Assembly: GCA_051715345.1 (NCBI GenBank)
Contig: JBPXJQ010000049.1
Span: forward strand, 20,015-84,014
Source: Candidatus Blackallbacteria bacterium
GTDB lineage: Bacteria > Cyanobacteriota > Sericytochromatia > UBA7694
DNA length: 64,000 bases
Direction of reading: 5' to 3'
Shown: piece by piece, positions 27,950 to 39,476 of the stretch
Numbering within the stretch: position 1 is the stretch's first letter
Layout: each line of letters opens with the position of its first letter
Position numbers and translations under genes: made by a program
The notes under the pieces: model-generated
What the model saw: only the letters and a program-made list of their open reading frames with translations
The model's database searches: none
What the model was told of the DNA's origin: nothing

Positions 27950-29881
27950 ATGACGGACTTTATCCCAAACAACGTGAATCGCTCGTTTCAATCTGTCCCA
28001 GGTATTCCCAAAGAAACCCCTGCCATCAGACAGGCCCCTACCCTACCCCCAAAAGCCAATACCAGTCCCAATCTGTTTAAACAAATTGGGACCAAATATC
28101 TGCAGGCAAATGCGGATTCTCCCCCCACACAGGGCCTGGGCCTCCGCAACCTCCTCGGGTTGGGCCTGGGAAAAAAAAATGATGACTTTGCTGTTTTGAG
28201 TGCGGCTCAGCCATCACCCCAAACGACCTCTCAAAACCGGATTTCAGATGCATTTAACCCCGACTTATTGCCTGCGGTCAATCAAGCTGCACCCCTCAGC
28301 CCTCCCGCTGTCTGTACTGACATCAATACTTGTGAGCCTGGCAGTGTCCGCCCGCCCATCTATGCCTTTGATTTTGCGCCCAGTAAAATGAGGCCCTTTC
28401 CAGAAGCCCGCAGCTTAAAAGGCCCATTGGCCATCCGCACAAGTTGGCTGAGTCAATTAGAAAAAAGTCACAGGGGTTATAATCTTGAGATTTTTCATAA
28501 CGGTATTCCTTTTGGAGCGCTTAAATCTGCCTTGGGAAAATCCGACAAAAATCAGGATTCCCAACTCAATTTGGATGAGGCAAAACGGGCTGGTGTACTT
28601 AACTCGACTCAAGCAGATGCTCTAAAACAGCTTGCGCGCGCTCATCAGCTCATGCCAGCAGACCCAAAGAATATCGACGCGGTAGCGCTGGGCAAAGCCC
28701 TTGAAACACAGGGCGTCACAATTCCAGCAGAACTGGCTGATGCACTTTCTGATTTGGAAGTGTTGAATCACTATTTGGGTCAAGTGGATATTGCCCCAGA
28801 AGAAATAATCTTGCAAGCGGATCCCCAAGCCCGTGCAACGTCTAAAACCACCCTTACGATGAAAGACTATGCCGAAACGACGATTGAACAAAAGGCTGAA
28901 ACCAAAGAGCAGTACCGTGCAGCCAAACTTGAATACCTGAAACTAAAAAGTGAGGTTCGATCATTGGAACAAAATGTAAAAACACTCACAGGAAAAATGG
29001 AAGCAGCAACAAAAGAGCGGGATCGCCTGATAGCAAGAAATCCAAGTCATTCTGGGATTCCGTCTCTGCAAGCAAAAATGGCAAGTCTGCAAACAGAGTT
29101 AACGCCTAAAATCGCGGAATTGGCCGCAAAGCAAGCTTTGCTTTCTGAAAAGGGAAATGCCACAGTAGAAGGGGTTTATGCGAAAGGGGGCACTGTGGTA
29201 GAAAAATATATATTTGGTCCCCAAACCCCTGAACAGAAGGCCGTCCAGTTTGGGGATATTTACGATCGCAGGGCTCAACAAGGCATTACCGATGGCTATA
29301 AACACGATAACGTGGGGTGTGCTGCTTTGACAGACCTGCTGCATACCCTGGTGCTCGGCCGAGAAATCAATGTCCAAAAAATGTTAGAACTCACCCAAAG
29401 TTCAGATCATTATGGCTCCGTCCAAGTCACCCATACAGCAGGGACGCGGACAACGCCATTTGCCAAAGACAAACCCAATCCTGCAGATCCTGGAGCCAAA
29501 CCACAGGAAGAAAATTTGCAGGCCCTGTTCGATCAAGGCGTGATCAAACCAGGAATGGTGTTGTTTATTAATACCGATTCTGATATGCGTCTGACCGGAG
29601 AAAGTGCAGACATGGGCAGTAAATCATTTGGTTCAAGTGACCGGCACTGGTTTACCTATATGGGAAAATCAGGAGAAACTCCTCTATTTTTAGACAATAC
29701 AGGCACAAAGTATACACTCCAGCAAATGATCAACCACTTCCAGGTCGGCCGAGAGGACAATATCGGCTCTCCAACTGTCTTACATACTGTCTTTGATTTT
29801 TATCCCACTGAAGCCGAACGCGAAAAATTTAAGGCTTTTGCCCAAAAATTGCTGGGAAATACCCTCTCAGAAAACGAATGA
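27950..29881 (+). CDS. Hypothetical 643-aa protein with central coiled coil and a C-terminal Cys/His-containing domain; lower GC than its neighbours
   Basis: It is a long ORF with a central heptad-like stretch (EQKAETKEQYRAAKLEYLKLKSEVRSLEQNVKTLTGKMEAATKERDRL). A C-terminal region has DNVGCAALTDLLH ... HWFTYMG. Local GC is visibly lower than flanking genes. Confidence 0.5.
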   Translation: MTDFIPNNVNRSFQSVPGIPKETPAIRQAPTLPPKANTSPNLFKQIGTKYLQANADSPPTQGLGLRNLLGLGLGKKNDDFAVLSAAQPSPQTTSQNRISDAFNPDLLPAVNQAAPLSPPAVCTDINTCEPGSVRPPIYAFDFAPSKMRPFPEARSLKGPLAIRTSWLSQLEKSHRGYNLEIFHNGIPFGALKSALGKSDKNQDSQLNLDEAKRAGVLNSTQADALKQLARAHQLMPADPKNIDAVALGKALETQGVTIPAELADALSDLEVLNHYLGQVDIAPEEIILQADPQARATSKTTLTMKDYAETTIEQKAETKEQYRAAKLEYLKLKSEVRSLEQNVKTLTGKMEAATKERDRLIARNPSHSGIPSLQAKMASLQTELTPKIAELAAKQALLSEKGNATVEGVYAKGGTVVEKYIFGPQTPEQKAVQFGDIYDRRAQQGITDGYKHDNVGCAALTDLLHTLVLGREINVQKMLELTQSSDHYGSVQVTHTAGTRTTPFAKDKPNPADPGAKPQEENLQALFDQGVIKPGMVLFINTDSDMRLTGESADMGSKSFGSSDRHWFTYMGKSGETPLFLDNTGTKYTLQQMINHFQVGREDNIGSPTVLHTVFDFYPTEAEREKFKAFAQKLLGNTLSENE

Positions 29882-30419
29882 ATTTTCATCTGGAGTCAAT
29901 GCCATATCCCGAAATCCAATTATTACTGCGCAAGTCTAGCCAAATTTAGAATATATTTTGTTGTTTTTATTGGAGTAAAAGTCTAAAAATCAAATTTCTA
30001 GAAAAATATTTTCTAAGATAATTGTGTAAATATTGAAAAAAAATTTAAATTTTTAAAATTAAAATCTATTTGAGAAATCAAATTTTGAATCAAATTAATA
30101 ATTCTTTATATTCCGGAACTATTATTTTATAGTCTCGTCCTAAATATATGCTTACTCATCGTTGATGCTCTACAGCAATAAACTTTGGAATTTTTTCAAT
30201 CCACCCAAATACTGCTTGTGGAGGAAAAATAAATTTTGTCGTCTTGCTTCAAATTTTTAAAAAACCATTTTTTTTATTTAATATTCATAAAAATAAATAG
30301 AGATAAATCAAAAAATCTTTTTAAATTAAAGCAAGAATTATATTGGTTAAAAAATTCTAAACGTAAATGTAGAGATTTGAATAAGTTTAAATTATTTTCT
30401 ACAAAATGGAGATTATTAA
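29882..30419. promoter_or_regulatory. About 540-bp extremely AT-rich intergenic tract (A/T runs, likely curved DNA) upstream of the ice-binding-domain adhesin
   Basis: GC is estimated at around 20% against roughly 55% for the surrounding coding DNA. It has many A5-8/T5-8 runs and no credible ORF; the table ORF 30236..30439 is AT-rich noise. Confidence 0.6.
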
Positions 30420-33038
30420 GTGAAAGTATTTGCGCGTAAATTTCGGATCAATAGAACATCGCTTTTTTCGATGGTCTTGTTGATTTCTACAGTCGGATGC
30501 CAGCCAACATCTACTTCAGGACCTAATGTCCCCAGCGCTCCAACCGCGAGTCCCGTCAATTCAGCTGCTCCAGCCGCGACGCCCACTCCAGGTGCCTCAG
30601 CGACGCCTGTTCCGGTCAGTTCGGGCCTCCCAGGGCAAACCGATAAGACACCGCCCACTGTGTCGTTTACCAGCCCCATTAATGCCGAACTGGGTATTGC
30701 TGTCAATCGTAAAATTGTTGCTACCTTCAGTGAAGTCATGGACCCGGCAAGTTTGTCAGAATCCACCTTCACGGTAACAGCTCCCGGACCTGTCCCTGTT
30801 TCTGGCAAGGTGACATATATTGGAAGCGTGGCCACTTTTACACCCACCAGCAACTTGGCTGTTAGCACCAGCTACACAGCGACAATCAGCACCAAAGCCA
30901 AGGACTTGGCTGGTAATGCCATTACACTCAAGAAAAGCTGGGTTTTTACCACAGACGCCTCGAGTGATACCACGGCCCCAAGTGAAAGTTATTCAAACCC
31001 TGCCAGTGGCGCAACCAATGTCGCCACCAGTGGCAATCTCGGCTTGACTTTCAGTGAAGTGATGGATCCCGCAACGATCAATACAGACACGTTTATCCTG
31101 AGAGAGCAACCCGGTTCAAAACCCGTTGCTGGTACTGTGACTTATATTGGGAATATTGTCAGCTTCAACCCCAAAGAATCACTCAAGCCCAACACCAGTT
31201 ATACAGCAACGATTACAACCGGTGCCAAAGATCTGGCAGGCAACCCCTTTGCCGCGGATAAAACCTGGACCTTTATCACAGGCTCGTCTGACGGCGCTGG
31301 TACGGGCAGCACCGGCGGCGGCGGCGGTGGCGGTGGCGGTGGCGGCGGCGGTAGCTCGGGTGGCGGTGGCAGTTCGGGTGGCGGTGTTGTCAATCCAGAT
31401 ACCTTCCCTCCAACCCTGAGTGCAAGCAACCCTGTCAATGCGGCCCTGAACGTCTTTACCAACGGCAAGTTGGCAGTGACCTTCAGTGAGGTGATGGACG
31501 CCTCAAGTTTAAATCCAACCACCTTTTCTCTGGTCGGGCCCGGTCAGACCCCAGTCCCTGGGACGGTGACTTATGCGGGCACCACGGCCACCTTTACCCC
31601 CAGCGCAAATCTCGCCGCCAATACCCAGTTTACGGCCACGATTACCAATGGGGTGAAAGACCTGGCTGGCAATGCTCTGGCTGCCAATCAGACTTGGACC
31701 TTTACCACCGGGTCCGCCACCGATACAACTGCCCCAACAGTCAACCTGAGTACGCCAGCCAACGCGGCCACAGGCGTGGCTGTTAACGCTGCTGTTTCAA
31801 GCACCTTTAGCGAAGCGATGAATGCCCTGACTATCAGCTCCAACAGCTTTAAGCTGACGGGGCCTGGGGCGACGCCCGTTTCTGGCGCTGTCACCTACGT
31901 TGGCAATATTGCGACCTTTACACCCACCAGCAACCTTGCGGCCAATACCCTGTATACAGCCACTGTGAATATGGGCGTCTTGGACCTCGCTGGCAATCCG
32001 TTGGCGGCCAACAAAGTCTGGACGTTCACCACCGGAGCGACTCCGGATACCACGGCGCCTCTGGTGAATGCAAGCAATCCTGCGAACCTGGGTGCCAGTG
32101 TGATTACCACAAGTTTGAACACCGCCACCTTCAATGAGCCAATGAATCCGCTCACTTTGACCACAGCCACATTTACCCTGACTGGGCCTGGTCAGGTGCC
32201 TGTTCCAGGCACCGTCAGCTATCTTGGCAATGTGGCCACCTTTACCCCGACAACAGAACTGGCACGCAAGACCCAGTACACGGCGACCTTGACCACGGGC
32301 GCTCAGGATCTCGCGGGCAATCCGCTGGCGGCCAACAAGGTTTGGACCTTTACCACCGCTCTGGGTCCAGCTGCCGTCAATCTCAGAACCGCCGCTGATT
32401 TTGCCGTCTTATCCAAATCCGGTATTTCGTCAGTTCCAGGTTCTGTGATCACCGGAGATATCGGGGTGAGCCCAATCGGGCTCACAGCCATCACAGGTTT
32501 CTCTGAGGTGATGGATGCTTCGACCACCTTTGCGACTTCGACACAGGTCACTGGCCGGATTTATGCGGCCAATCTGACCGCGCCCACACCCACAAAAATG
32601 ACAACGGCGATTGGAGATTTGGCCACAGCTTATACCGATGCAGCTGGCAGGGCCATCCCTGATTTCTCTGAGTTGGGCACAGGTCAAATCGGGGGGCAGA
32701 CATTGGTGCCGGGTCTCTACAAATGGGGAACCAATGTTTTGGTCTCAACCAATGTCACCTTAAACGGCGGCCCCAACGATATCTGGATCTTTCAGATTTC
32801 GGGCGGCGTGATCCAGGCTTCTGATACACGGGTGATCCTCTCAGGTGGGGCCCAGGCCAAAAATGTCTTTTGGCAGATTGCTGGCGATGTGAGCATTGGT
32901 GCTCGCGCCCATTTTGAGGGAATCATCATGTGTGAAACCGAGATCAATTTGGGTTCAGACGCCTCGATCAACGGTCGCCTCTTGGCCAATACGGCGGTTA
33001 ATTTGATCAAAAACACGGTGACGCAACCGGCTCTCTAA
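30420..33038 (+). CDS. Surface lipoprotein with about 7 tandem Ig-like (SbsA/Big-type) modules, poly-Gly linker and C-terminal DUF3494 ice-binding-like domain
   Basis: It has a GTG start with GGAG 9 nt upstream. The signal peptide ends in a lipobox (LLISTVGC). There are repeated ~100-aa modules (...TFSEVMDP/A..L...TF.L.GPG..PV.GTVTY.G..ATFTP...LA..T.YTATI...KDLAGN...). The C-terminus has AADFAVLSKSGISSVPGSVITGDIGVSPIGLTAITGF ... AKNVFWQIAGDVSIGARAHFEGIIMCETEINLGSDASINGRLLANTAVNL, typical of DUF3494 IBPs. Confidence 0.8.
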   Translation: MKVFARKFRINRTSLFSMVLLISTVGCQPTSTSGPNVPSAPTASPVNSAAPAATPTPGASATPVPVSSGLPGQTDKTPPTVSFTSPINAELGIAVNRKIVATFSEVMDPASLSESTFTVTAPGPVPVSGKVTYIGSVATFTPTSNLAVSTSYTATISTKAKDLAGNAITLKKSWVFTTDASSDTTAPSESYSNPASGATNVATSGNLGLTFSEVMDPATINTDTFILREQPGSKPVAGTVTYIGNIVSFNPKESLKPNTSYTATITTGAKDLAGNPFAADKTWTFITGSSDGAGTGSTGGGGGGGGGGGGGSSGGGGSSGGGVVNPDTFPPTLSASNPVNAALNVFTNGKLAVTFSEVMDASSLNPTTFSLVGPGQTPVPGTVTYAGTTATFTPSANLAANTQFTATITNGVKDLAGNALAANQTWTFTTGSATDTTAPTVNLSTPANAATGVAVNAAVSSTFSEAMNALTISSNSFKLTGPGATPVSGAVTYVGNIATFTPTSNLAANTLYTATVNMGVLDLAGNPLAANKVWTFTTGATPDTTAPLVNASNPANLGASVITTSLNTATFNEPMNPLTLTTATFTLTGPGQVPVPGTVSYLGNVATFTPTTELARKTQYTATLTTGAQDLAGNPLAANKVWTFTTALGPAAVNLRTAADFAVLSKSGISSVPGSVITGDIGVSPIGLTAITGFSEVMDASTTFATSTQVTGRIYAANLTAPTPTKMTTAIGDLATAYTDAAGRAIPDFSELGTGQIGGQTLVPGLYKWGTNVLVSTNVTLNGGPNDIWIFQISGGVIQASDTRVILSGGAQAKNVFWQIAGDVSIGARAHFEGIIMCETEINLGSDASINGRLLANTAVNLIKNTVTQPAL
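31316..31385. repeat. (GGC/GGT)n trinucleotide tract encoding the poly-Gly/Ser linker
   Basis: The sequence ggcggcggcggcggtggcggtggcggtggcggcggcggtagctcgggtggcggtggcagttcgggtggcggtg encodes GGGGGGGGGGGGSSGGGGSSGGG. Confidence 0.85.
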
Positions 33039-33099: not shown

Positions 33100-33113
33100 T
33101 GTTGGGCTGGGGG

Positions 33114-34430
33114 TCAAACACTCTTTTGACCCTTTGTCTCTTGCAACCAAAGGGCTTGAAATTGCCCCTCAGAGTCATAGCGCTGGGCCTGGCCTTCGGG
33201 ATCAAAACGGCGCAAAGGTCGGGGATCATTGCCCACCCCCGCCAAGTACATCCAATTGCCCCAATTGCTACAGGGATCGTAGTCAATCAGGCAATGTTCA
33301 AACCAAGCTGCTCCCCAGGTCCAGGGCAAGTTTAAATCATGAATGAGATAGCTGGCGACGTTCTGCCGTCCCCGATTGGACATCCAGCCCGAAAGCGCCA
33401 ATTCGCGCATATTGGCGTCGATAAAGCGCTGACCGGTTTGCCCCCGACACCAAGCCGCAAAAAGTGCTGGGTCTGCTTTTGCGGGCGGAACTTTGCCCTG
33501 CAGTCCTCCCAAGAGAAAAATCTATTTGCCCGCTTGAAGTGCCACCAGCCGAAAGTATTCCCGCCAAAGCAATTCAAAGATCAGCCAATAGGTGGAGTCA
33601 TTGGCTCCCAATTGGGCTTCATGGGCCCTCACCTGGGCGTAAATCTGCCGAGCCGAGAGCGTCCCATTGGCCAACCAAGCTGAAAATTTGGACGAATAGG
33701 CTTCCCCAATCAGGCCATTGCGGGTCTCTTTGTATGTGCGGATCAGACCACGTTGCCAGATATAATCATCTAAACGCCCCAAAGCCGCAGTTTCTCCTCC
33801 CACAAAACGCAAGACTGCACGGGGATCGTCTTGGGGCGGTTCCAGAGCCAGATCTTGCATGCCGGGGAGGGCAGGACAGTCTGGCAACAATTCTGGCAAT
33901 GGGGGCATGTGTCGAGGGGGAGGCAGCGGGGGGAGGACGTGTAGCTCGGGTTCGATCAGTTTGCGAAAAGCTGTGAAGTTCTTGGGCAAGTCTGTCAGGT
34001 CAAAGGGCAGATTTTCGAGTTGCAATAAACTTTCACTGGGAGCAAGCAAGAGCGGCAGACCCCCTTTTGCCAGTTTTCGTTGTAGGGCATCTTCTTCGGC
34101 CTTTTCTTCAGGCAAAAACGCGCCCAAGCCGTAGACTGCGTCTGCTTGAATCTGCGTGACCAAGGCAGGGATGATCTGCTGGGGAGGGCCCAGAAACACA
34201 TACAGATCACTGCCCAATTGTTTCAGCTGGGTCTGTAAATCTTTCAGGCTTTCCAGCAAAAAGCGCGTCCGCCAAGGGCCGGTTTTGGCAAAGCCCAAAG
34301 GGAGTTTGCGAAACCGTGCCGGGTTGAGGCAATAGACAGGCAGAAGTGTATCGGCACTTTTCGCGAGTTGACTGAACAGGGCCTGATCATGCAGGCGCAA
34401 ATCTTGACGGAACCAATAAATGACGTGCAT
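33114..34430 (-). pseudogene. DNA photolyase/cryptochrome family gene interrupted by one in-frame TAG (33522-33524)
   Basis: The N-terminal ORF 33522..34430 has MHVIYWFRQDLRLHDQALF (photolyase alpha/beta domain) and ends ...WREYFRLVALQAGK*. ORF 33114..33512 is in the same frame and continues ...FIDANMRELALSGWMSNRGRQNVASYLIHDL...GNWMYLAGVG (FAD-binding domain). Spacing across the stop matches intact photolyases. Confidence 0.75.
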
Positions 34431-34491
34431 GCTGCTCAGAAAAACATGTGACAGAGGCTGATTGCAATTTTAGGGCGGGCTCACCGCGGGC

Positions 34492-36441
34492 TCAGGTCAT
34501 AAACTCCCAGCCGCTGCGCCAGGCCTCGAGGCCTTCGCAGTACTCCTGAAAGCCATGGTAAAAACGGTGATTGGCCAAGGTGGCGCTGTCGCCAATTACC
34601 ACCAGTTTTTTGCGCGCGCGGGTCAGGGCCACATTCATGCGCCGGGTGTCTTTGAGAAAGCCCAATTCACCTTCGCCATTGGAGCGTACCAGCGAGATAT
34701 ACATGATATCCCGCTCTTGGCCTTGAAAGCCATCGACGGTATCCACACTGAAACTGCCCAGCTTCAACACGTGTGGATCTGTCCGTAAAAGATCTTTAAG
34801 CAGATTGACCTGCTGGCGATAGGGCGAAATGATTCCCAGACTGAGTTGGCTCAGATCCAGACCTGCAGACTGGAGGCCCACCAGCAATTGTGTCAGGTGG
34901 ATTTGTAAGAGGCCTGCTTCGCCCGGATTGCCCGTGCTTTTGCTTTCGGGGTTGAGCTCTTCTTCGTGACCACAGCCTGCGGTGTCGATAAACTCCAAAG
35001 GCCGGTTCAGCCAGGGATCGTCGCCCCCAAGATCAGGGCTGGGTTCATCACTGCCCAGGAGCGTGTGTTCGGCCACCGAAGCATGCGCCAAGAGCCGATC
35101 TTGGTAAAATTCATGGCTGGAAAAGCCCATGATTTGCTGATTCATGCGGTACTGGGTATCCAACAATGTTGCGGCTTCGGGCTGGGCCTCTGCACAAATT
35201 TCAAACAGGGTTTTGTTCAGGCCTCCGGCCAGGGCCTGGGGGGATTTGACCGTGGGGGGCAATTGGCAGTGATCCCCCGCCAGAATTACCCGTTTGGCTT
35301 TGAGAATCGGAATCAAGGTACCGCCCAACAGTGCCTGGGCCGCTTCGTCGATAAAGACCGTCTCAAATTTGCGCTTGTGCATAATCTCCTGCGAGGCTCC
35401 CACCAAGGTGCAGAGAATGACCCTGGCGCGGTCGAGAATATGTTCCAACATCTGGTTTTCCATCTCACGGGCCATTGCCAACATGCGTTTGACATCTGCC
35501 ATTTCTTCGCGGCGTTGGGCCCGTTCCGCTGGCCCAAAATTGCGCTTAAAACGCAGGGCCTTGCTGCGGGTGTCGCGGGCCTCGCGGCGCAAATTCTGGA
35601 GCACCTGAAAATTGGGGTGTTGGCTCAATTGTTCGTCGAGGGTATAGGGCAAGATTTTTTCTGACATGCGGGCAGGATGACCCAAGCGAACCACGGGCAG
35701 ACCTGATTCGGCCAATTTTTCGCAGAGCAAATCTGTGGCGGCATTGCTTGGGGCTGAAACCAATACCTGTTTTTCGTGTTGTAAGACAGCCTGAATGGCT
35801 GCAACCAGCGTGGTTGTTTTGCCGGTGCCCGGTGGGCCGTGAATCATGGCCAATTCCTGGGCCTGCAAGACCTGAGAGACAGCCCGGTTCTGGGAATCAT
35901 TTAAATGGGGCAAGGGCTGAAAGGGAAAGGCCAAAAATTTAACTGGCGCTTCGCCAAAGAGTTTTTCTCGCAAACTCAGAAGGGGTCCCTGTTGAATGCC
36001 TTTAAAAATCTCCACAGCCCGGCGCATCTCGCGGTAGGTCGTTTCGTCATAACAGAGATCGAGACCCAATTTGCCCTCGTCGAGCCAATCGGGCAATTCG
36101 TCGCGTTGCATCACCAATTTGAGGCTGTTGCGGCTCACATGCGTTGCCACGCCCGTTAAAGGCGCCTCTTGCGGGAAGGCCATGCTGAAGATCGCCAAAA
36201 TCTGCCCATTTTGAAAGAGGTGGTGTTGATCCAATTCACTTGTGCGCTCCAATTCCAGAATCAGCTTCTGGCCCAAGCCCAAATCTGTCTGTTTGAGCAC
36301 CACCGGATACCAGCAAATTCCTTGGGCCTTGCGGGTTTTTAAGGGGGTTTCCAAGACCTGGGTGCGGTAGAGTTCTTCTTCCGCTTTTTCTTCGAGCTTG
36401 AGCAATTGCAACCACTGTTCCAGCTGAGCTGAACTGTTCAC
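34492..36441 (-). CDS. Superfamily 1 Upf1/DNA2/IGHMBP2-like helicase (AAA_11/AAA_12)
   Basis: It has Walker A MIHGPPGTGKTTTLVAAI, motif II VFIDEAAQ and C-terminal motifs VDGFQGQERDIMYISLVRSN, TRARKKLVVIG. The start is placed at the GTG at 36441, preceded by GGAGA; the table ORF extends to 36588. Confidence 0.8.
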   Translation of the reverse strand: MNSSAQLEQWLQLLKLEEKAEEELYRTQVLETPLKTRKAQGICWYPVVLKQTDLGLGQKLILELERTSELDQHHLFQNGQILAIFSMAFPQEAPLTGVATHVSRNSLKLVMQRDELPDWLDEGKLGLDLCYDETTYREMRRAVEIFKGIQQGPLLSLREKLFGEAPVKFLAFPFQPLPHLNDSQNRAVSQVLQAQELAMIHGPPGTGKTTTLVAAIQAVLQHEKQVLVSAPSNAATDLLCEKLAESGLPVVRLGHPARMSEKILPYTLDEQLSQHPNFQVLQNLRREARDTRSKALRFKRNFGPAERAQRREEMADVKRMLAMAREMENQMLEHILDRARVILCTLVGASQEIMHKRKFETVFIDEAAQALLGGTLIPILKAKRVILAGDHCQLPPTVKSPQALAGGLNKTLFEICAEAQPEAATLLDTQYRMNQQIMGFSSHEFYQDRLLAHASVAEHTLLGSDEPSPDLGGDDPWLNRPLEFIDTAGCGHEEELNPESKSTGNPGEAGLLQIHLTQLLVGLQSAGLDLSQLSLGIISPYRQQVNLLKDLLRTDPHVLKLGSFSVDTVDGFQGQERDIMYISLVRSNGEGELGFLKDTRRMNVALTRARKKLVVIGDSATLANHRFYHGFQEYCEGLEAWRSGWEFMT

Positions 36442-36614
36442 ACCTTGTATCTCCCTGTTCTGAATGTTGCCCAGTATACCAGAGGCGAAGCGAAGAGAAA
36501 TTCCAATGTCGGATCTGACTTGTTGAATCGGGCGATTGCGTCTATGCTTAGGGAAGAATAAGAGCGAAAATTCAAGAATCAATCCCACTTAAATTCAAAG
36601 CAGGTATTGCTATT

Positions 36615-38255
36615 ATGGGTTCCATTGGTGGTTTAGGTTCTTCACCTATCATGCCGATTTCTCAAGTGTCGACCGCTCCCGATTCTGCCAACAAAGTTGC
36701 CCCCGTTCAGACGGTAACTGCGACCCAAGCCCCGTCCACTTCTTCTGTCACCCAGGCGCCCGAAAGCCAAGAAACAGCCCAATTGGTCAGAGCTGCCAAA
36801 ATAGGATCCGAGTCTGGCCCAACGGTTGAGGCAACCACTCAGCTTGGCACCGATCTTGAAAGCCAACCGATCACGGAGCCCAAGGGATTCCCGCTGACGC
36901 GCATGGATGGCTCCACTGCCAGCCCTGCACCGCTCACATCAGGCTATACCGCTTACGTGGTTCTTTCTGAACAACCAAAGGCAACGACAACCCGTCAATC
37001 TCAAACTGCGCCAAGCTATGAAGCTGTAACAATAACCCCAGAATCCAGTTATGCAAGCAGTTTGACACCCTCAGCCCCCAGTTCACAACCGACCTCACCC
37101 ACCCACAATACGGGGTACGCATCCAGCCTGTCGCAAACTTCCCCAAGCTCTGTTCAGGCTTCGCAGATTTCGCATTCTCCTTCGTCTGTCACCCCAACCC
37201 ATTCCTCCCCGTCAGACAGTCTGGCTCCTATCTCTCTGCCCAAAACCTACCACGGTGAAGATACCCGTGTGGCCTGGCGAGCGACCTTTGGCGCAGAAGA
37301 CCTGAAAACCTCGGATCCAGAAGAATACAAGCGAAGGGAGGATTTTGGAAAAAACAGTGCTCAAATTGTGACCGAGTACTTTAGCAAAGACCAGATCACT
37401 GAACATACCTTGACTCCCAAAGATGGCAAATTGGTTACCCATGACGGCCAGACGGCCTCCTCTGTCTCTAACCATTCTATTTATGCCATGAGCCCAGATG
37501 GCAAGATCGTTTCGCAACAGAGTAAACCCTTTCAGACCGTTATTAAAGATGCCGATGGCAACGAGATCCAAAAAAGAAATCTCCATCACTCCTCAATGCT
37601 GGCCGGCGGTGATGTGGCCCATGCTGGGCATATCGGAACGGATACCCAGGGCAAAGTCAATTATCTCGATGACGACAGTGGTCATTATCGCCCAGACGAA
37701 AAACACACCCACAACGCTTTCCAGCGCATGGCCAAAGACAAGATTGTCGATATCAACTCCACCAGCGGACGCGTCAAACTGGTCGATAAACAAACCCGCA
37801 AAGGCCTTGAGGAAAGAGACAAAGATGGCAAGACCATCGACAAGACGATCTCCGTACATTTCTCGGGTTATCAACAGTCCCAGGGAAATGAAAAAGGCAT
37901 TCGGGCCAAAGCGGATGTCATGAAAGAACTGCTCGCCAAAAAATCTGAAAGCGAAAAAAAACCATCGGTCCCTCTCACCGTCGTTTCAGTGGAGGGCTAT
38001 GAGTCTTATTCACAAAGCGATGCAAAACCCGTTCAGACATCCGTTCCCCAGGAACAAGTCTCATCAGATCAGCACAGCAGTTCATCTGTCAGTGCGACAC
38101 ATCCCTCTGCGCCAGTCACCTTTGTTTCCATGGAGGGCTATGAGTCTTATTCGCGCAGTGATGCAAAACCTCTTCAGACACCGCAGAACCCAGAGCCCTC
38201 ATCATCGGCTCCGCCAGAACAGCTCAGCAATCCGGTTCCTGAGCTTAAACCCTGA
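36615..38255 (+). CDS. Ser/Thr/Pro-rich hypothetical protein with His-rich central domain and C-terminal tandem repeats
   Basis: 546 aa with a low-complexity S/T/P/Q N-terminal 200 aa. The central domain has NLHHSSMLAGGDVAHAGHIGTDTQGKVNYLDDDSGHYRPDEKHTH. The C-terminus has repeated VVSVEGYESYSQSDAKPVQT / FVSMEGYESYSRSDAKPLQT. Confidence 0.5.
   Translation: MGSIGGLGSSPIMPISQVSTAPDSANKVAPVQTVTATQAPSTSSVTQAPESQETAQLVRAAKIGSESGPTVEATTQLGTDLESQPITEPKGFPLTRMDGSTASPAPLTSGYTAYVVLSEQPKATTTRQSQTAPSYEAVTITPESSYASSLTPSAPSSQPTSPTHNTGYASSLSQTSPSSVQASQISHSPSSVTPTHSSPSDSLAPISLPKTYHGEDTRVAWRATFGAEDLKTSDPEEYKRREDFGKNSAQIVTEYFSKDQITEHTLTPKDGKLVTHDGQTASSVSNHSIYAMSPDGKIVSQQSKPFQTVIKDADGNEIQKRNLHHSSMLAGGDVAHAGHIGTDTQGKVNYLDDDSGHYRPDEKHTHNAFQRMAKDKIVDINSTSGRVKLVDKQTRKGLEERDKDGKTIDKTISVHFSGYQQSQGNEKGIRAKADVMKELLAKKSESEKKPSVPLTVVSVEGYESYSQSDAKPVQTSVPQEQVSSDQHSSSSVSATHPSAPVTFVSMEGYESYSRSDAKPLQTPQNPEPSSSAPPEQLSNPVPELKP
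37991..38180. repeat. Two 49-bp direct repeats (37991-38039 and 38132-38180) inside the 3' end of the S/T-rich gene
   Basis: ggagggctatgagtcttattcacaaagcgatgcaaaacccgttcagaca vs ggagggctatgagtcttattcgcgcagtgatgcaaaacctcttcagaca. Confidence 0.85.
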
Positions 38256-38387
38256 TTTTCTCCTTTGCAAGTAGATATCAACTCACCACCGCGTGAAGGC
38301 CGGCTTCTGGCTTTCACGGTTTTTTCTCACTCCCAAGAGTGGGAACAACAAATTGCCAATCTTGGGCAATTGTAAGGAGAACAAGGC

Positions 38388-39374
38388 ATGGATCTCACCC
38401 AACTCTCACGCATCGAGAACAAAAAAGCGAAGCTTGGCCAAGAGCGCAGCCAAAACGCAAGTGCGGCATGCGATTTGGGTTTTCAATGCCTGGCAAATGC
38501 CTTTCAGCCAGAAAACAGGGTTCAATCACGCCAATTGCTGATCCAGGCCTATGATGCCTTTCAGCAGGCCCTTGAACAGCAGCGAACAAACCCCGAACCC
38601 TATGTCGGCCTCAGTTATCTGTTGATGTCGATGGAACAATACGACAATGCCCTGGTTTATCTCGAAGAAGCCAATCGCCTCTGCCCCAGCTATCCCAATC
38701 TTCAGGCCATGTTCCAGTCAATCACAGAAGCTCAGCAGAACAAATCCAAACTACGCCGTCAGCAGTCTGGGGCCGCAAAGGTAGACAGGTCAAAACCACC
38801 TGTTCCCCCATTCAAGCCCAGCGAACCCCAACAGATCGATTACGATGCGCTTTACGATCAGACCATGAACCTGATTGTCCAGCGGGTGCATAAGATCATG
38901 GGTGAAAACCGCCTGCCACCCCATCCGACCCTGAATAGCAATGAATTGGAATTGCTCTCAATTCAACGCAAAAACTGGCGCAAATGGCACAAAGAGGTTC
39001 AATCCAACCTCGACATCCTGGATCAGGAAATCGACGTTTCGCCGCTCCAATTACAGCTCAAACCCTTTGAGCTTCTCCTCAAACGCTATAGCGATTTCAT
39101 TGCTGCCTCCCAACTGCTCATCGAGCTCAAACTGCGTATTCGCGAGGAATCAGTGCTGGTGCTGGCACAAATCCGCGAAGGCCAAGGTGTCGTCGATCCC
39201 AGCGATGTTGCAATCCTGCAAGAAAACCTCGAATCGATCCTCGATCAATGCGATAAAATGGCCGATCAATTGGATCAGATTGAAGACCTGGGCTTTGACA
39301 ACAGCGTGGTGCTGGTCGATTACGAAAAGTTAATCCGCTGTGTTGAGGCCCTGCAGGAAGCGATCGACACCTAA
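38388..39374 (+). CDS. TPR-like/coiled-coil hypothetical protein (paralog of 26649..27578)
   Basis: 328 aa with an N-terminal TPR-like helix pair and a C-terminal coiled coil. It shows clear similarity to the other copy. Confidence 0.5.
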   Translation: MDLTQLSRIENKKAKLGQERSQNASAACDLGFQCLANAFQPENRVQSRQLLIQAYDAFQQALEQQRTNPEPYVGLSYLLMSMEQYDNALVYLEEANRLCPSYPNLQAMFQSITEAQQNKSKLRRQQSGAAKVDRSKPPVPPFKPSEPQQIDYDALYDQTMNLIVQRVHKIMGENRLPPHPTLNSNELELLSIQRKNWRKWHKEVQSNLDILDQEIDVSPLQLQLKPFELLLKRYSDFIAASQLLIELKLRIREESVLVLAQIREGQGVVDPSDVAILQENLESILDQCDKMADQLDQIEDLGFDNSVVLVDYEKLIRCVEALQEAIDT

Positions 39375-39476
39375 ACCTCAACCCCAACTCCGCCAAATGT
39401 GTCGAATGCACATCTCTCGCGCGCAAGCCTGTGTTAGGCTTAAATTAACCGCTGTACCTAGGTTTGGTCAAAAAAA

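Follow-up and report, generated by a model that had tools for sequence, protein, structure and literature searches.

A putative lipoprotein with a five-module Big_5 stalk and a C-terminal DUF3494 domain in a Sericytochromatia genome

Gene, leader and neighbourhood

The window analysed here, that is, the whole stretch of 64,000 nucleotides taken from a contig of a Candidatus Blackallbacteria bacterium (Sericytochromatia), a relative of the cyanobacteria that lacks photosynthesis, harbors a gene for a protein of 872 residues whose features are collected in Table 1. The open reading frame, which a preliminary description made from the letters alone had pointed out, is real and runs without interruption on the forward strand, and a GGAG Shine-Dalgarno sequence is found at 30408-30411, 8 nt before its GTG start. 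The leader that precedes it is rich in AT (22% GC, vs about 53% genome-wide), a property kept in the homologues L001 (24% GC) and L080 (25% GC), and contains promoter-like sites at 30085-30133, identified by consensus match alone. Nothing in the window, leader included, matched an Rfam family, and a structured RNA in the leader was therefore rejected. The hairpin downstream of the stop codon should be considered a candidate only, since such sites are not above the shuffle expectation in this region.

Concerning composition, the gene itself (GC 0.551, GC3 0.577) is typical of the window, so that recent horizontal acquisition was rejected for it on these grounds, the low GC measured for the 30-32 kb bin being due to the AT-rich leader. 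The flanking genes encode an RCK channel, a LysM protein, a kinase, hypothetical proteins, a photolyase and a helicase; as these are unrelated, and as the neighbourhoods differ in L080, L081 and L082, a functional operon with the neighbours was rejected as well. An upstream ORF of 643 aa was considered as a partner and discarded, as its matches in Pfam, NCBIfam and PDB do not rise above noise. The overlapping minus-strand ORFs (e.g. 30416-30868), for which no support was found, are taken to be a side effect of repetition in the coding sequence. Screening of the window revealed no second DUF3494 copy.

Table 1. Features of the 872-residue protein gene and its surroundings, in window positions.
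Feature	Positions	Strand	Basis or remark
AT-rich upstream leader or promoter region, 538 bp	29882..30419	+	22% GC
CDS, 872 aa, complete	30420..33038	+	single uninterrupted ORF; GTG start; stop codon 33036-33038
Type II (lipoprotein) signal peptide, predicted, residues 1-27	30420..30500	+	pattern match and hydropathy
Pro/Ala/Ser/Thr-rich tether, residues 28-74	30501..30641	+	predicted disordered
Big_5 Ig-like module 1, residues 75-178	30642..30953	+	Pfam, motifs, tblastn, model
Big_5 Ig-like module 2, residues 183-287	30966..31280	+	Pfam, motifs, tblastn, model
Gly/Ser hinge, residues 288-326	31281..31397	+	sequence; pLDDT <50 over 290-326
Big_5 Ig-like module 3, residues 327-430	31398..31709	+	Pfam, motifs, tblastn, model
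Big_5 Ig-like module 4, residues 435-538	31722..32033	+	Pfam, motifs, tblastn, model
Big_5 Ig-like module 5, residues 543-646	32046..32357	+	Pfam, motifs, tblastn, model
DUF3494 / Ice_binding beta-solenoid domain, residues 647-872	32358..33035	+	Pfam, PDB sequence matches, model
Weak terminator-like hairpin, candidate	33109..33134	+	71 nt 3' of stop codon

Anchor, stalk and hinge

The N-terminus of the protein conforms to the pattern of bacterial lipoproteins, the substrates of signal peptidase II, with a basic n-region (MKVFARKFRINR; 3 K/R among the first 7 residues), a hydrophobic h-region (mean hydropathy 1.96 over residues 14-26) and a lipobox, SMVLLISTVGC, at 17-27, whose S-T-V-G-C ends in Cys27, the predicted first lipidated residue. 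The pattern employed was modelled on PROSITE PS00013 and asks for [LIVMFWSTAG](2)-[LIVMFYSTAGCQ]-[AGS]-C, the Cys lying at position 15-35, after a basic n-region and a hydrophobic h-region. The lipobox (TVGC or TMGC) is kept with its Cys in L001, P0003 and P0007, the Cys being invariant across orthologues 72-96% identical, and hence the lipobox signal peptide of the preliminary description stands; a lipobox-like N-terminus is present in at most 79 of the 120 best homologues, which is an upper estimate because the pattern is loose. We infer from this that the protein is lipidated at Cys27; it may be exposed at the surface or lie in the periplasm. In the AlphaFold model pLDDT is about 28-30 across residues 1-73.

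The stalk was originally thought to comprise about seven Ig-like modules, a number that had to be rejected, as four independent counts all arrive at five. Pfam identifies five stretches of PF13205 Big_5 (410.2 bits summed across them, cutoff 23.6), the best of which, residues 183-287, spans profile positions 1-105 of 105; five start and five end motifs are present; tblastn yields five matches; and the AlphaFold model displays five eight-strand sandwiches, mostly at pLDDT 75-94. Pairwise identity among the modules is 47-61%, and their predicted fold resembles the Ig arrays of S-layer and adhesin proteins, with Foldseek matches to SbsB, SbsC and Sap. The only PDB sequence matches of the stalk region are single-chain Fv antibodies, which were rejected as spurious because their synthetic (G4S)n linkers align with the natural Gly/Ser hinge.

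As for the poly-Gly hinge, it is indeed present as a Gly/Ser run, but with a length of 24 residues (299-322) instead of the 23 initially reported, within a 37-residue linker (290-326) that is predicted disordered, and it is coded by a (GGY)n tract at 31313-31386. Nor does it divide the modules from the DUF3494 domain, as had been stated, since it splits the stalk into two plus three modules. Its position is constant and its length variable in L001, P0003, P0025 and P0007, and it is absent from P0087.

The two long disordered segments (1-73 and 290-326) could be accessible to proteases, and most characterised DUF3494 ice-binding proteins are secreted and soluble (PMC7783341), which would agree with a protein that is secreted or released, e.g. 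by cleavage in the tether or the hinge, and then structures ice, or forms part of a matrix, outside the cell in soluble form. The lipobox conservation described above, in the close orthologues and, by the loose pattern, among the best homologues, argues against such a release, and it is hard to see what a protein that diffuses freely would need a five-module stalk for, so we regard this reading as quite improbable.

DUF3494 domain and predicted binding face

The assignment of the C-terminus to DUF3494, first made from characteristic start and end strings that are both found in the ORF, is borne out by the HMM search, in which PF11999 matches residues 663-868 over its whole length (profile positions 1-208 of 208, E 6.2e-71, 238.8 bits, cutoff 28.7), so that the lack of a significant DUF3494 match, named in the preliminary description as grounds for refutation, did not occur. 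Against 20 solved ice-binding proteins the domain yields phmmer E values of 1.7e-75 to 1e-55, with an ungapped identity of 56.6% to mFfIBP, 52% to TisAFP8 and 49% to LeIBP, and Foldseek reports 50-55% identity to ice-binding proteins of Candidatus Cryosericum odellii. For the confirmed features, domain matches by chance are excluded. The NCBIfam equivalog NF045625 (IBP_CFB) is matched over profile positions 59-275 of 275 only, at 240.1 bits, below its cutoff of 400, and the protein is therefore not to be assigned to it.

The AlphaFold model, with pLDDT 86-97 in most of the domain, presents a beta-solenoid with discontinuous coil order, braced by a single long alpha-helix at 723-742. This predicted fold superimposes on 4NU3, 9LHN, 5B5H and 7DC5 with TM 0.96-0.98 and rmsd 0.7-0.9 A over about 221 residues (Foldseek; the identity of 9LHN and related PDB entries is taken from the Foldseek descriptions). 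The domain shares its DUF3494 branch with FfIBP and mFfIBP of Flavobacterium frigoris PS1 (4NU2, 4NU3), LeIBP (3UYU), TisAFP6, 7 and 8 (3VN3, 7DC5, 5B5H) and the Candidatus Cryosericum odellii proteins (9LHN, 9LI0, 9LHS, 9LHR), a set showing 47-57% identity (Foldseek) and rmsd 0.7-1.0 A, with the exception of wild-type FfIBP (4NU2), whose capping head is different and which gives rmsd 3.0 A and TM 0.91. The capping head of the domain has the length seen in LeIBP and TisAFP, and for this reason the match is closer to the head-swapped mFfIBP than to wild-type FfIBP. All these proteins are single-domain and soluble, whereas here DUF3494 forms the tip of an 872-residue lipoprotein. FfIBP also carries a capping-head disulfide that raises its activity (PMC10853241); the domain has one Cys, C838, and hence none. 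The lack of this disulfide together with the LeIBP/TisAFP-type head suggests that ice activity would be moderate rather than hyperactive.

The predicted strands of the binding face, or b-face, are 668-672, 773-775, 797-799, 824-826, 841-844 and 859-863, and the TisAFP binding-site ranges published in PMC7966756 align without gaps to short beta-strands of the domain model. Inward positions of this face are occupied by conserved hydrophobic residues, while the outward centre ladder, S670-N861-N843-S825-I798-L774, contains no aromatic or basic residue and is adjoined by a column made up of G668, A859, E841, D823, G796 and N772. In 71 homologues, the centre positions I798, S825, N843 and N861 are occupied by Thr in 49, 54, 34 and 47 cases, respectively, and the site residues T20, F43 and A214 of TisAFP7 correspond to S667, A690 and N861. 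The papers on FfIBP and LeIBP reportedly describe a T-A/G-X-T/N motif, which strictly occurs in one coil only, T858-A-V-N861. The neighbouring column, for its part, bears Asp823 and Glu841 where polar and glacier sequences show an Ala "trough" that has been tied to efficient ice binding (PMC12337378). In the column taken to be equivalent to b-face column 2 of SfIBP, which in that hyperactive protein is lined by Ala alone (PMC12337378), the residues are N, G, D, E and A.

As modelled, the b-face thus appears polar and flat, compatible with ice binding, and at the same time unlike the Thr ladder found in its own family as well as the Ala trough found in polar proteins. Such deviations are not disqualifying for ice, because LeIBP is active with Asp, Phe and Glu in the same column, its Asp occupying the site of Asp823; FfIBP, also active, has an Asn in the ladder, and the DUF3494 family as a whole lacks a conserved binding-site motif (PMC7966756). 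That the Sericytochromatia tip recognises a periodic surface other than ice, for instance the lattice of a mineral or of a crystalline polysaccharide, and that the lineage-specific Asn/Ser/Ile/Leu ladder with its adjoining Asp and Glu reflects this ligand, is in our view less likely than not.

Distribution, related designs and proposed role

A public Candidatus Sericytochromatia MAG is syntenic with the window at about 93% nucleotide identity, and the L001 orthologue is 96% identical over its full length. More broadly, the Big_5 plus DUF3494 architecture is common to 108 of the 120 best homologues, among more than 7,800 matches, and proteins built in this way number in the thousands across many phyla, including organisms of habitats that never freeze. 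The architecture turns up in MAGs whose titles indicate groundwater or spring samples ("Zod" for Zodletone, "HGW" for Horonobe, "OW334" for Olkiluoto) and in the typically anaerobic lineages Treponemataceae, Saccharofermentanales and Oscillospiraceae. The caution voiced in the preliminary description, that DUF3494 domains are found in mesophiles too, is justified and bears on the interpretation, given these MAGs and the literature, which records the family all over the world, in the tropics, hot springs, caves and groundwater among other places (PMC7783341; PMC11645318). No habitat was found in literature or metadata for MAG_89, SRR26831655, IMG 3300051370 or ERZ27284381, and a literature search for Sericytochromatia and ice binding returned nothing.

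Any implication that the design is unusual has to be dropped, since the tethered arrangement of several Big_5 modules followed by DUF3494 is already known and very common. Proteins classed as pfam13205_pfam13205_pfam11999, "BIg-like, tethering", with up to 7 Ig-like domains, have been described from central Arctic Ocean (sea-ice) metagenomes, in a paper that views Ig-like repeats as tethers between the cell and the ice-binding domain (PMC9957290). They share the Pfam order, Big_5 repeats and then Ice_binding; the protein described here differs in coming from a Sericytochromatia genome and in its five modules, internal Gly hinge and lipobox.

Similarly, the Nostoc sp. HG1 protein nIBP is a DUF3494 protein of a cyanobacterial lineage, in the broad sense, and is thought to be attached to the cell and argued to act at its surface (PMC7783341). 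It is a single domain with a C-terminal PEP-Cterm anchor and no Ig-like stalk, and belongs to the EfcIBP/AnpIBP branch, without capping head (PMC7783341), which is only 28-31% identical to the domain studied here. The concept of an Ig-like extender array that projects an ice-binding domain off the cell is shared as well with MpIBP of Marinomonas primoryensis, a 1.5-MDa RTX ice adhesin with a Ca-dependent RTX beta-solenoid, type I secretion and about 120 extender repeats (PMC5550230), whose ice-binding fold is unrelated to DUF3494. A Pfam search (E up to 0.01) detected neither RTX nor any other Ca-binding repeat family in the 872-residue protein, which ends in the DUF3494 domain and not in a type I signal, and hence it is not an RTX adhesin of the MpIBP kind.

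A close parallel in layout is SfIBP_1 of Shewanella frigidimarina (6BG8), which likewise unites in one polypeptide an anchor, a series of beta-sandwich extenders and, at the end, a DUF3494 domain; its Ig-like repeats are presented as a tether that makes adhesion to ice possible (PMC9957290). SfIBP_1 is said to have its anchor at the N-terminus and was reportedly proposed as an ice adhesin by Vance, Graham and Davies (2018, FEBS J 285:1511), although the term used is said to be "potential" ice adhesin, and cell-to-ice attachment is not known to have been shown directly. The DUF3494 fold is shared (TM 0.87, Foldseek), but the two domains are 28% identical and SfIBP_1 lies on a distant branch (E 1.5e-19, vs 1.7e-75 for the top match). 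Its PDB entry is named "Ig domain protein, group 2", while the extenders here are Big_5, and the poly-Gly joint finds no mention for SfIBP_1 in the literature searched.

At the level of domains, then, the likeness to a surface-anchored adhesin noted at the outset was read correctly: a lipoprotein signal comes first, Ig-like extenders follow in tandem, and DUF3494 closes the chain. We propose, at roughly an even chance, that the protein is a display protein tethered to the cell envelope, with a tip that binds some regular surface, ice being the most likely. Qualitatively, the type II signal peptide would direct export and lipidation at Cys27; the disordered tether and five rigid Big_5 beta-sandwiches, with the poly-Gly joint between modules 2 and 3, would form a jointed stalk that, judging from the domain count, may be tens of nanometres long; and the DUF3494 beta-solenoid, as far as sequence and predicted fold indicate, would be held out at its tip, where the flat b-face could dock onto a regularly spaced surface. 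By analogy, ice is the most probable ligand, because the relatives at 46-57% identity that have been characterised all bind ice. The protein may in this way anchor the cell to ice, or concentrate ice-recrystallisation inhibition at the cell surface during freezing, a mode that would parallel the proposals for SfIBP_1 and for nIBP.

The same tethered architecture would serve equally if the tip bound a repeating lattice other than ice, such as that of a mineral, of a crystalline polysaccharide, or of another organism's EPS or cell wall. The protein would then act as a general surface or biofilm adhesin, for which any affinity to ice is incidental. Such a ligand would suit the worldwide occurrence of DUF3494, of which it is said that the "original substrate remains unclear" and for which mineral or other repetitive substrates have been suggested (PMC7783341; PMC11645318), the treatment of the family as "ice-binding and substrate-binding" (PMC12337378), the presence of Big_5 with DUF3494 in lineages and sites unlikely to freeze, the stalk fold with its likeness to S-layer and adhesin arrays, and a b-face that has Asp823 and Glu841 and neither Thr ladder nor Ala trough. 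It is weakened by the activity of LeIBP in spite of a similar column and by the uniform ice binding of the characterised relatives, and the literature searched offers no PF11999 domain with a demonstrated ligand of this kind; we regard it as a serious rival, somewhat less likely than ice.

The tethered display protein proposed here adds one more member, from the poorly sampled Sericytochromatia, to a class that is very large and already described. Its value is modest and lies in its use as a test case for what DUF3494 domains bind in organisms that perhaps never meet ice, a use favoured by its small size (872 aa), its completeness, its clean modularity and a binding face that resembles neither the consensus nor the polar type; thousands of others would do just as well. 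If the tip were indeed to bind a periodic ligand other than ice, the very large Big_5-DUF3494 class would for the first time have a defined substrate that is not ice.

Domain architecture of the protein

The gene under study is a single unbroken ORF that starts with a GTG and codes for 872 aa, with a Shine-Dalgarno GGAG located 8 nt 5' of the start. This GTG is favoured over an internal ATG at 30471, since it is the only one of the two that yields the basic n-region MKVFARKFRINR, which is kept in the closest orthologue. The GC (0.551) and GC3 (0.577) values are typical of the window, and hence give no compositional sign of recent transfer.

Pfam profile searching of the whole protein yields five stretches of PF13205 (Big_5, E 4.8e-125) and a PF11999 (Ice_binding/DUF3494) match covering all 208 profile positions (E 6.2e-71), in agreement with the C-terminal DUF3494 domain proposed in the preliminary description, whose quoted sequence strings are found. 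The lipobox signal peptide also proposed there is corroborated by Cys27, the basic n-region and the hydrophobic core, and the lipobox Cys is kept in orthologues of 72-96% identity. Concerning the stalk, the tandem Ig-like (Big_5) array holds, but Pfam, motifs, tblastn and the AlphaFold2 model all count five modules instead of seven: each opens with D-[KT]-[TF]-[PA]-P and closes with W-[TV]-F-[TI]-T, the same five are recovered by tblastn, and module-to-module identity is 47-61%. Likewise, a Gly/Ser hinge is present, but splits the stalk into 2 + 3 modules instead of preceding DUF3494. Apart from module count and hinge placement, the initial observation is real and its domain-level recognition correct.

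In the AlphaFold2 model of the full-length protein, built from a 15-sequence alignment (mean pLDDT 79.7), five sandwiches share one eight-strand pattern, the C-terminus is a beta-solenoid with one long helix (723-742), and pLDDT falls below 50 at residues 1-73 and 290-326. These results establish which domains are present, in what order and with what predicted folds, and where the disordered linkers lie.

The hinge run, GGGGGGGGGGGGGSSGGGGSSGGG (residues about 299-322), is encoded by a microsatellite-like (GGY)n tract (window 31313-31386). Its length varies among L001 (the contig with the closest orthologue) and the homologous proteins P0003, P0025 and P0007; together with the nature of the tract, this suggests that slippage drives the variation. 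When searched against the PDB the hinge retrieves single-chain Fv antibodies, through its likeness to synthetic (G4S)n linkers.

Features of the gene, its product and its immediate neighbours
Feature	Position	Remarks
643-aa ORF	window 27950-29881 (+)	
Intergenic leader	window 29882-30419	538 bp
Gene under study	window 30420..33038 (+)	
Lipoprotein signal pattern	residues 1-27	lipobox S-T-V-G-C with Cys27, hydrophobic core, three K/R among first seven residues
Tether	residues 28-74	Pro/Ala/Ser/Thr-rich
Big_5 module 1	residues 75-178	
Big_5 module 2	residues 183-287	
Gly/Ser hinge	residues 288-326	links modules 2 and 3; 24 consecutive G/S residues at 299-322
Big_5 module 3	residues 327-430	
Big_5 module 4	residues 435-538	
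Big_5 module 5	residues 543-646	
DUF3494	residues 663-868	
Cryptochrome-DASH/photolyase gene	window 33114-34430 (-)	in-frame TAG at codon 303 (33522-33524)

Genomic neighbourhood and distribution of the design

A contig of 'Candidatus Sericytochromatia bacterium MAG_89' is syntenic with the window at about 93% DNA identity, and its version of the protein is 96% identical. Orthologues further away, at 72-76% identity, include that of 'Cyanobacteria bacterium UBA7694'. The gene appears monocistronic, because its neighbours are functionally unrelated and the neighbourhood is kept only in close relatives. Its leader, with 22% GC vs about 53% for the genome, is conserved and likewise AT-rich in L001 (24%) and the relative's contig L080 (25%), the two closest contigs; it matched no Rfam family, and its promoter-like consensus matches are as expected from AT-rich DNA anyway.

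The upstream 643-aa ORF, coiled-coil-like in its central part, has a GC3 of 0.433 vs 0.55-0.65 in its neighbours and no match above noise in Pfam, NCBIfam or PDB; it is possibly of foreign origin or evolving fast. Directly downstream, the two halves of the interrupted photolyase match the DNA_photolyase and FAD_binding_7 families, and the L001 orthologue has Gln at codon 303. The TAG could mark a pseudogene, be a nonsense mutation specific to the strain, or stem from a sequencing error. Small insertions or replacements adjoining the gene distinguish close relatives: L001 carries about 650 bp extra between gene and photolyase (window 33107-33145 vs L001 12679-13370) and about 875 bp near window 23560 (vs L001 2253-3128), while in L080 other genes replace the photolyase (window 33101-34496) and the 36482-39397 segment is missing.

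The Big_5 + DUF3494 design is already known and very abundant. Of the 8,000 candidates in the homology search, at least 7,802 proteins scored at E <= 1e-10, and 108 of the best 120 homologues contain both Big_5 and Ice_binding; hosts span Bacteroidota, Ignavibacteria, Spirochaetota, Planctomycetota, Acidobacteriota, Gemmatimonadota, Proteobacteria, Patescibacteria and even archaea. Among these best 120, a loose pattern detects a lipobox-like N-terminus in 79, and no more than 6 contain 10 or more G/S residues in a row, of which at least three, namely P0003, P0007 and P0025, are the nearest relatives of the protein under study; DUF3494 lies at the extreme C-terminus in 60 of the 71 homologues in which it aligns well. 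The architecture pfam13205_pfam13205_pfam11999 has been catalogued as 'tethering' in a study that also describes, for S. frigidimarina and M. primoryensis, Ig-like repeats acting as ice-adhesion tethers (PMC9957290). Some record titles hint at origins that are cold or freeze seasonally (Glaciimonas, a glacier-fed-stream MAG, fen and bog MAGs, Chersky), others name groundwater, a sulfur spring or typically anaerobic lineages.

Solved relatives and predicted binding face

The DUF3494 domain matches 25 distinct solved DUF3494 sequences in the PDB, the best being the head-swapped FfIBP mutant 4NU3 (E 1.7e-75), with Candidatus Cryosericum odellii proteins, LeIBP and TisAFP8 also among the best; SfIBP_1, IBPv, EfcIBP and AnpIBP (7BWX/7BWY) are much more distant (E about 1e-20). 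Gap-free alignments yield identities of 56.6% with mFfIBP, 52% with TisAFP8 and 49% with LeIBP, the Cryosericum proteins are the closest natural solved relatives (50-55%), and the model superposes on close crystal structures with TM 0.96-0.98 and rmsd 0.7-0.9 A. It should be noted that 9LHN, 9LI0, 9LHS and 9LHR, entries released in 2025, carry just the name 'DUF3494 domain-containing protein' in the sequence file; their structure titles identify them as Candidatus Cryosericum odellii ice-binding proteins. The capping head has the same length as in LeIBP and TisAFP. It lacks the disulfide that rigidifies that of FfIBP and raises its activity (PMC10853241), since the domain has only one Cys. The domain scores 240 bits, below the NCBIfam ice-binding equivalog cutoff of 400 bits.

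The family's ice-binding site has no conserved motif, and in TisAFP T20Y and A214Y each roughly halve activity (PMC7966756). With an ungapped offset of +647, the TisAFP site residues (PMC7966756) map to KSGISSV (19-25), PIGLTAIT (38-45), GTNVLVS (123-129), SGGVIQA (147-153), AGDVSIG (174-180), ETEINLG (192-198) and NTAVNLI (210-216), whose sheet parts are short strands in the model. The register of this predicted b-face is supported by its inward positions, which are hydrophobic and conserved across 71 homologues. The predicted outward centre ladder is S670, N861, N843, S825, I798 and L774, next to a column of G668, A859, E841, D823, G796 and N772. The retrieved Big_5-DUF3494 homologues form a strong Thr ladder, with Thr at positions 798 (49/71), 825 (54/71), 843 (34/71) and 861 (47/71); the protein under study has I, S, N and N (window about 32811-33002), a pattern common to L001, P0003 and P0025, P0007 having His at 843. 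In b-face column 2, polar-marine and glacier sequences show Ala, and sediment, subsurface and rock sequences Ser, Gly and Thr (PMC12337378). The predicted face fits neither the homologue Thr ladder nor these column patterns; however, Asp, Phe and Glu occupy the same column in LeIBP, which is active, and Asn occurs in the centre ladder of hyperactive FfIBP, hence the face is consistent with ice binding without being diagnostic of it.

Candidate mechanism and ligand

The protein would be exported and then lipidated at Cys27, a jointed stalk probably tens of nanometres long carrying the solenoid, whose b-face would dock onto a periodic surface; a released, soluble form, the minor rival, seems quite improbable. 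Ice is the most likely ligand, because every tested relative at such identity binds ice and no demonstrated non-ice ligand was found in the literature examined, and we regard the complete statement, tethering and ice together, as about an even call. Both points argue against the main rival, the same machine with a tip that binds a non-ice substrate, which draws on the atypical b-face and on the spread of the family through unfrozen habitats (PMC7783341, PMC11645318) and to which we give somewhat less credence. That the DUF3494 domain of this Sericytochromatia lineage has a non-ice ligand we consider rather unlikely; if true, it would be moderately interesting, since the original substrate of the DUF3494 family is acknowledged to be unknown (PMC11645318).
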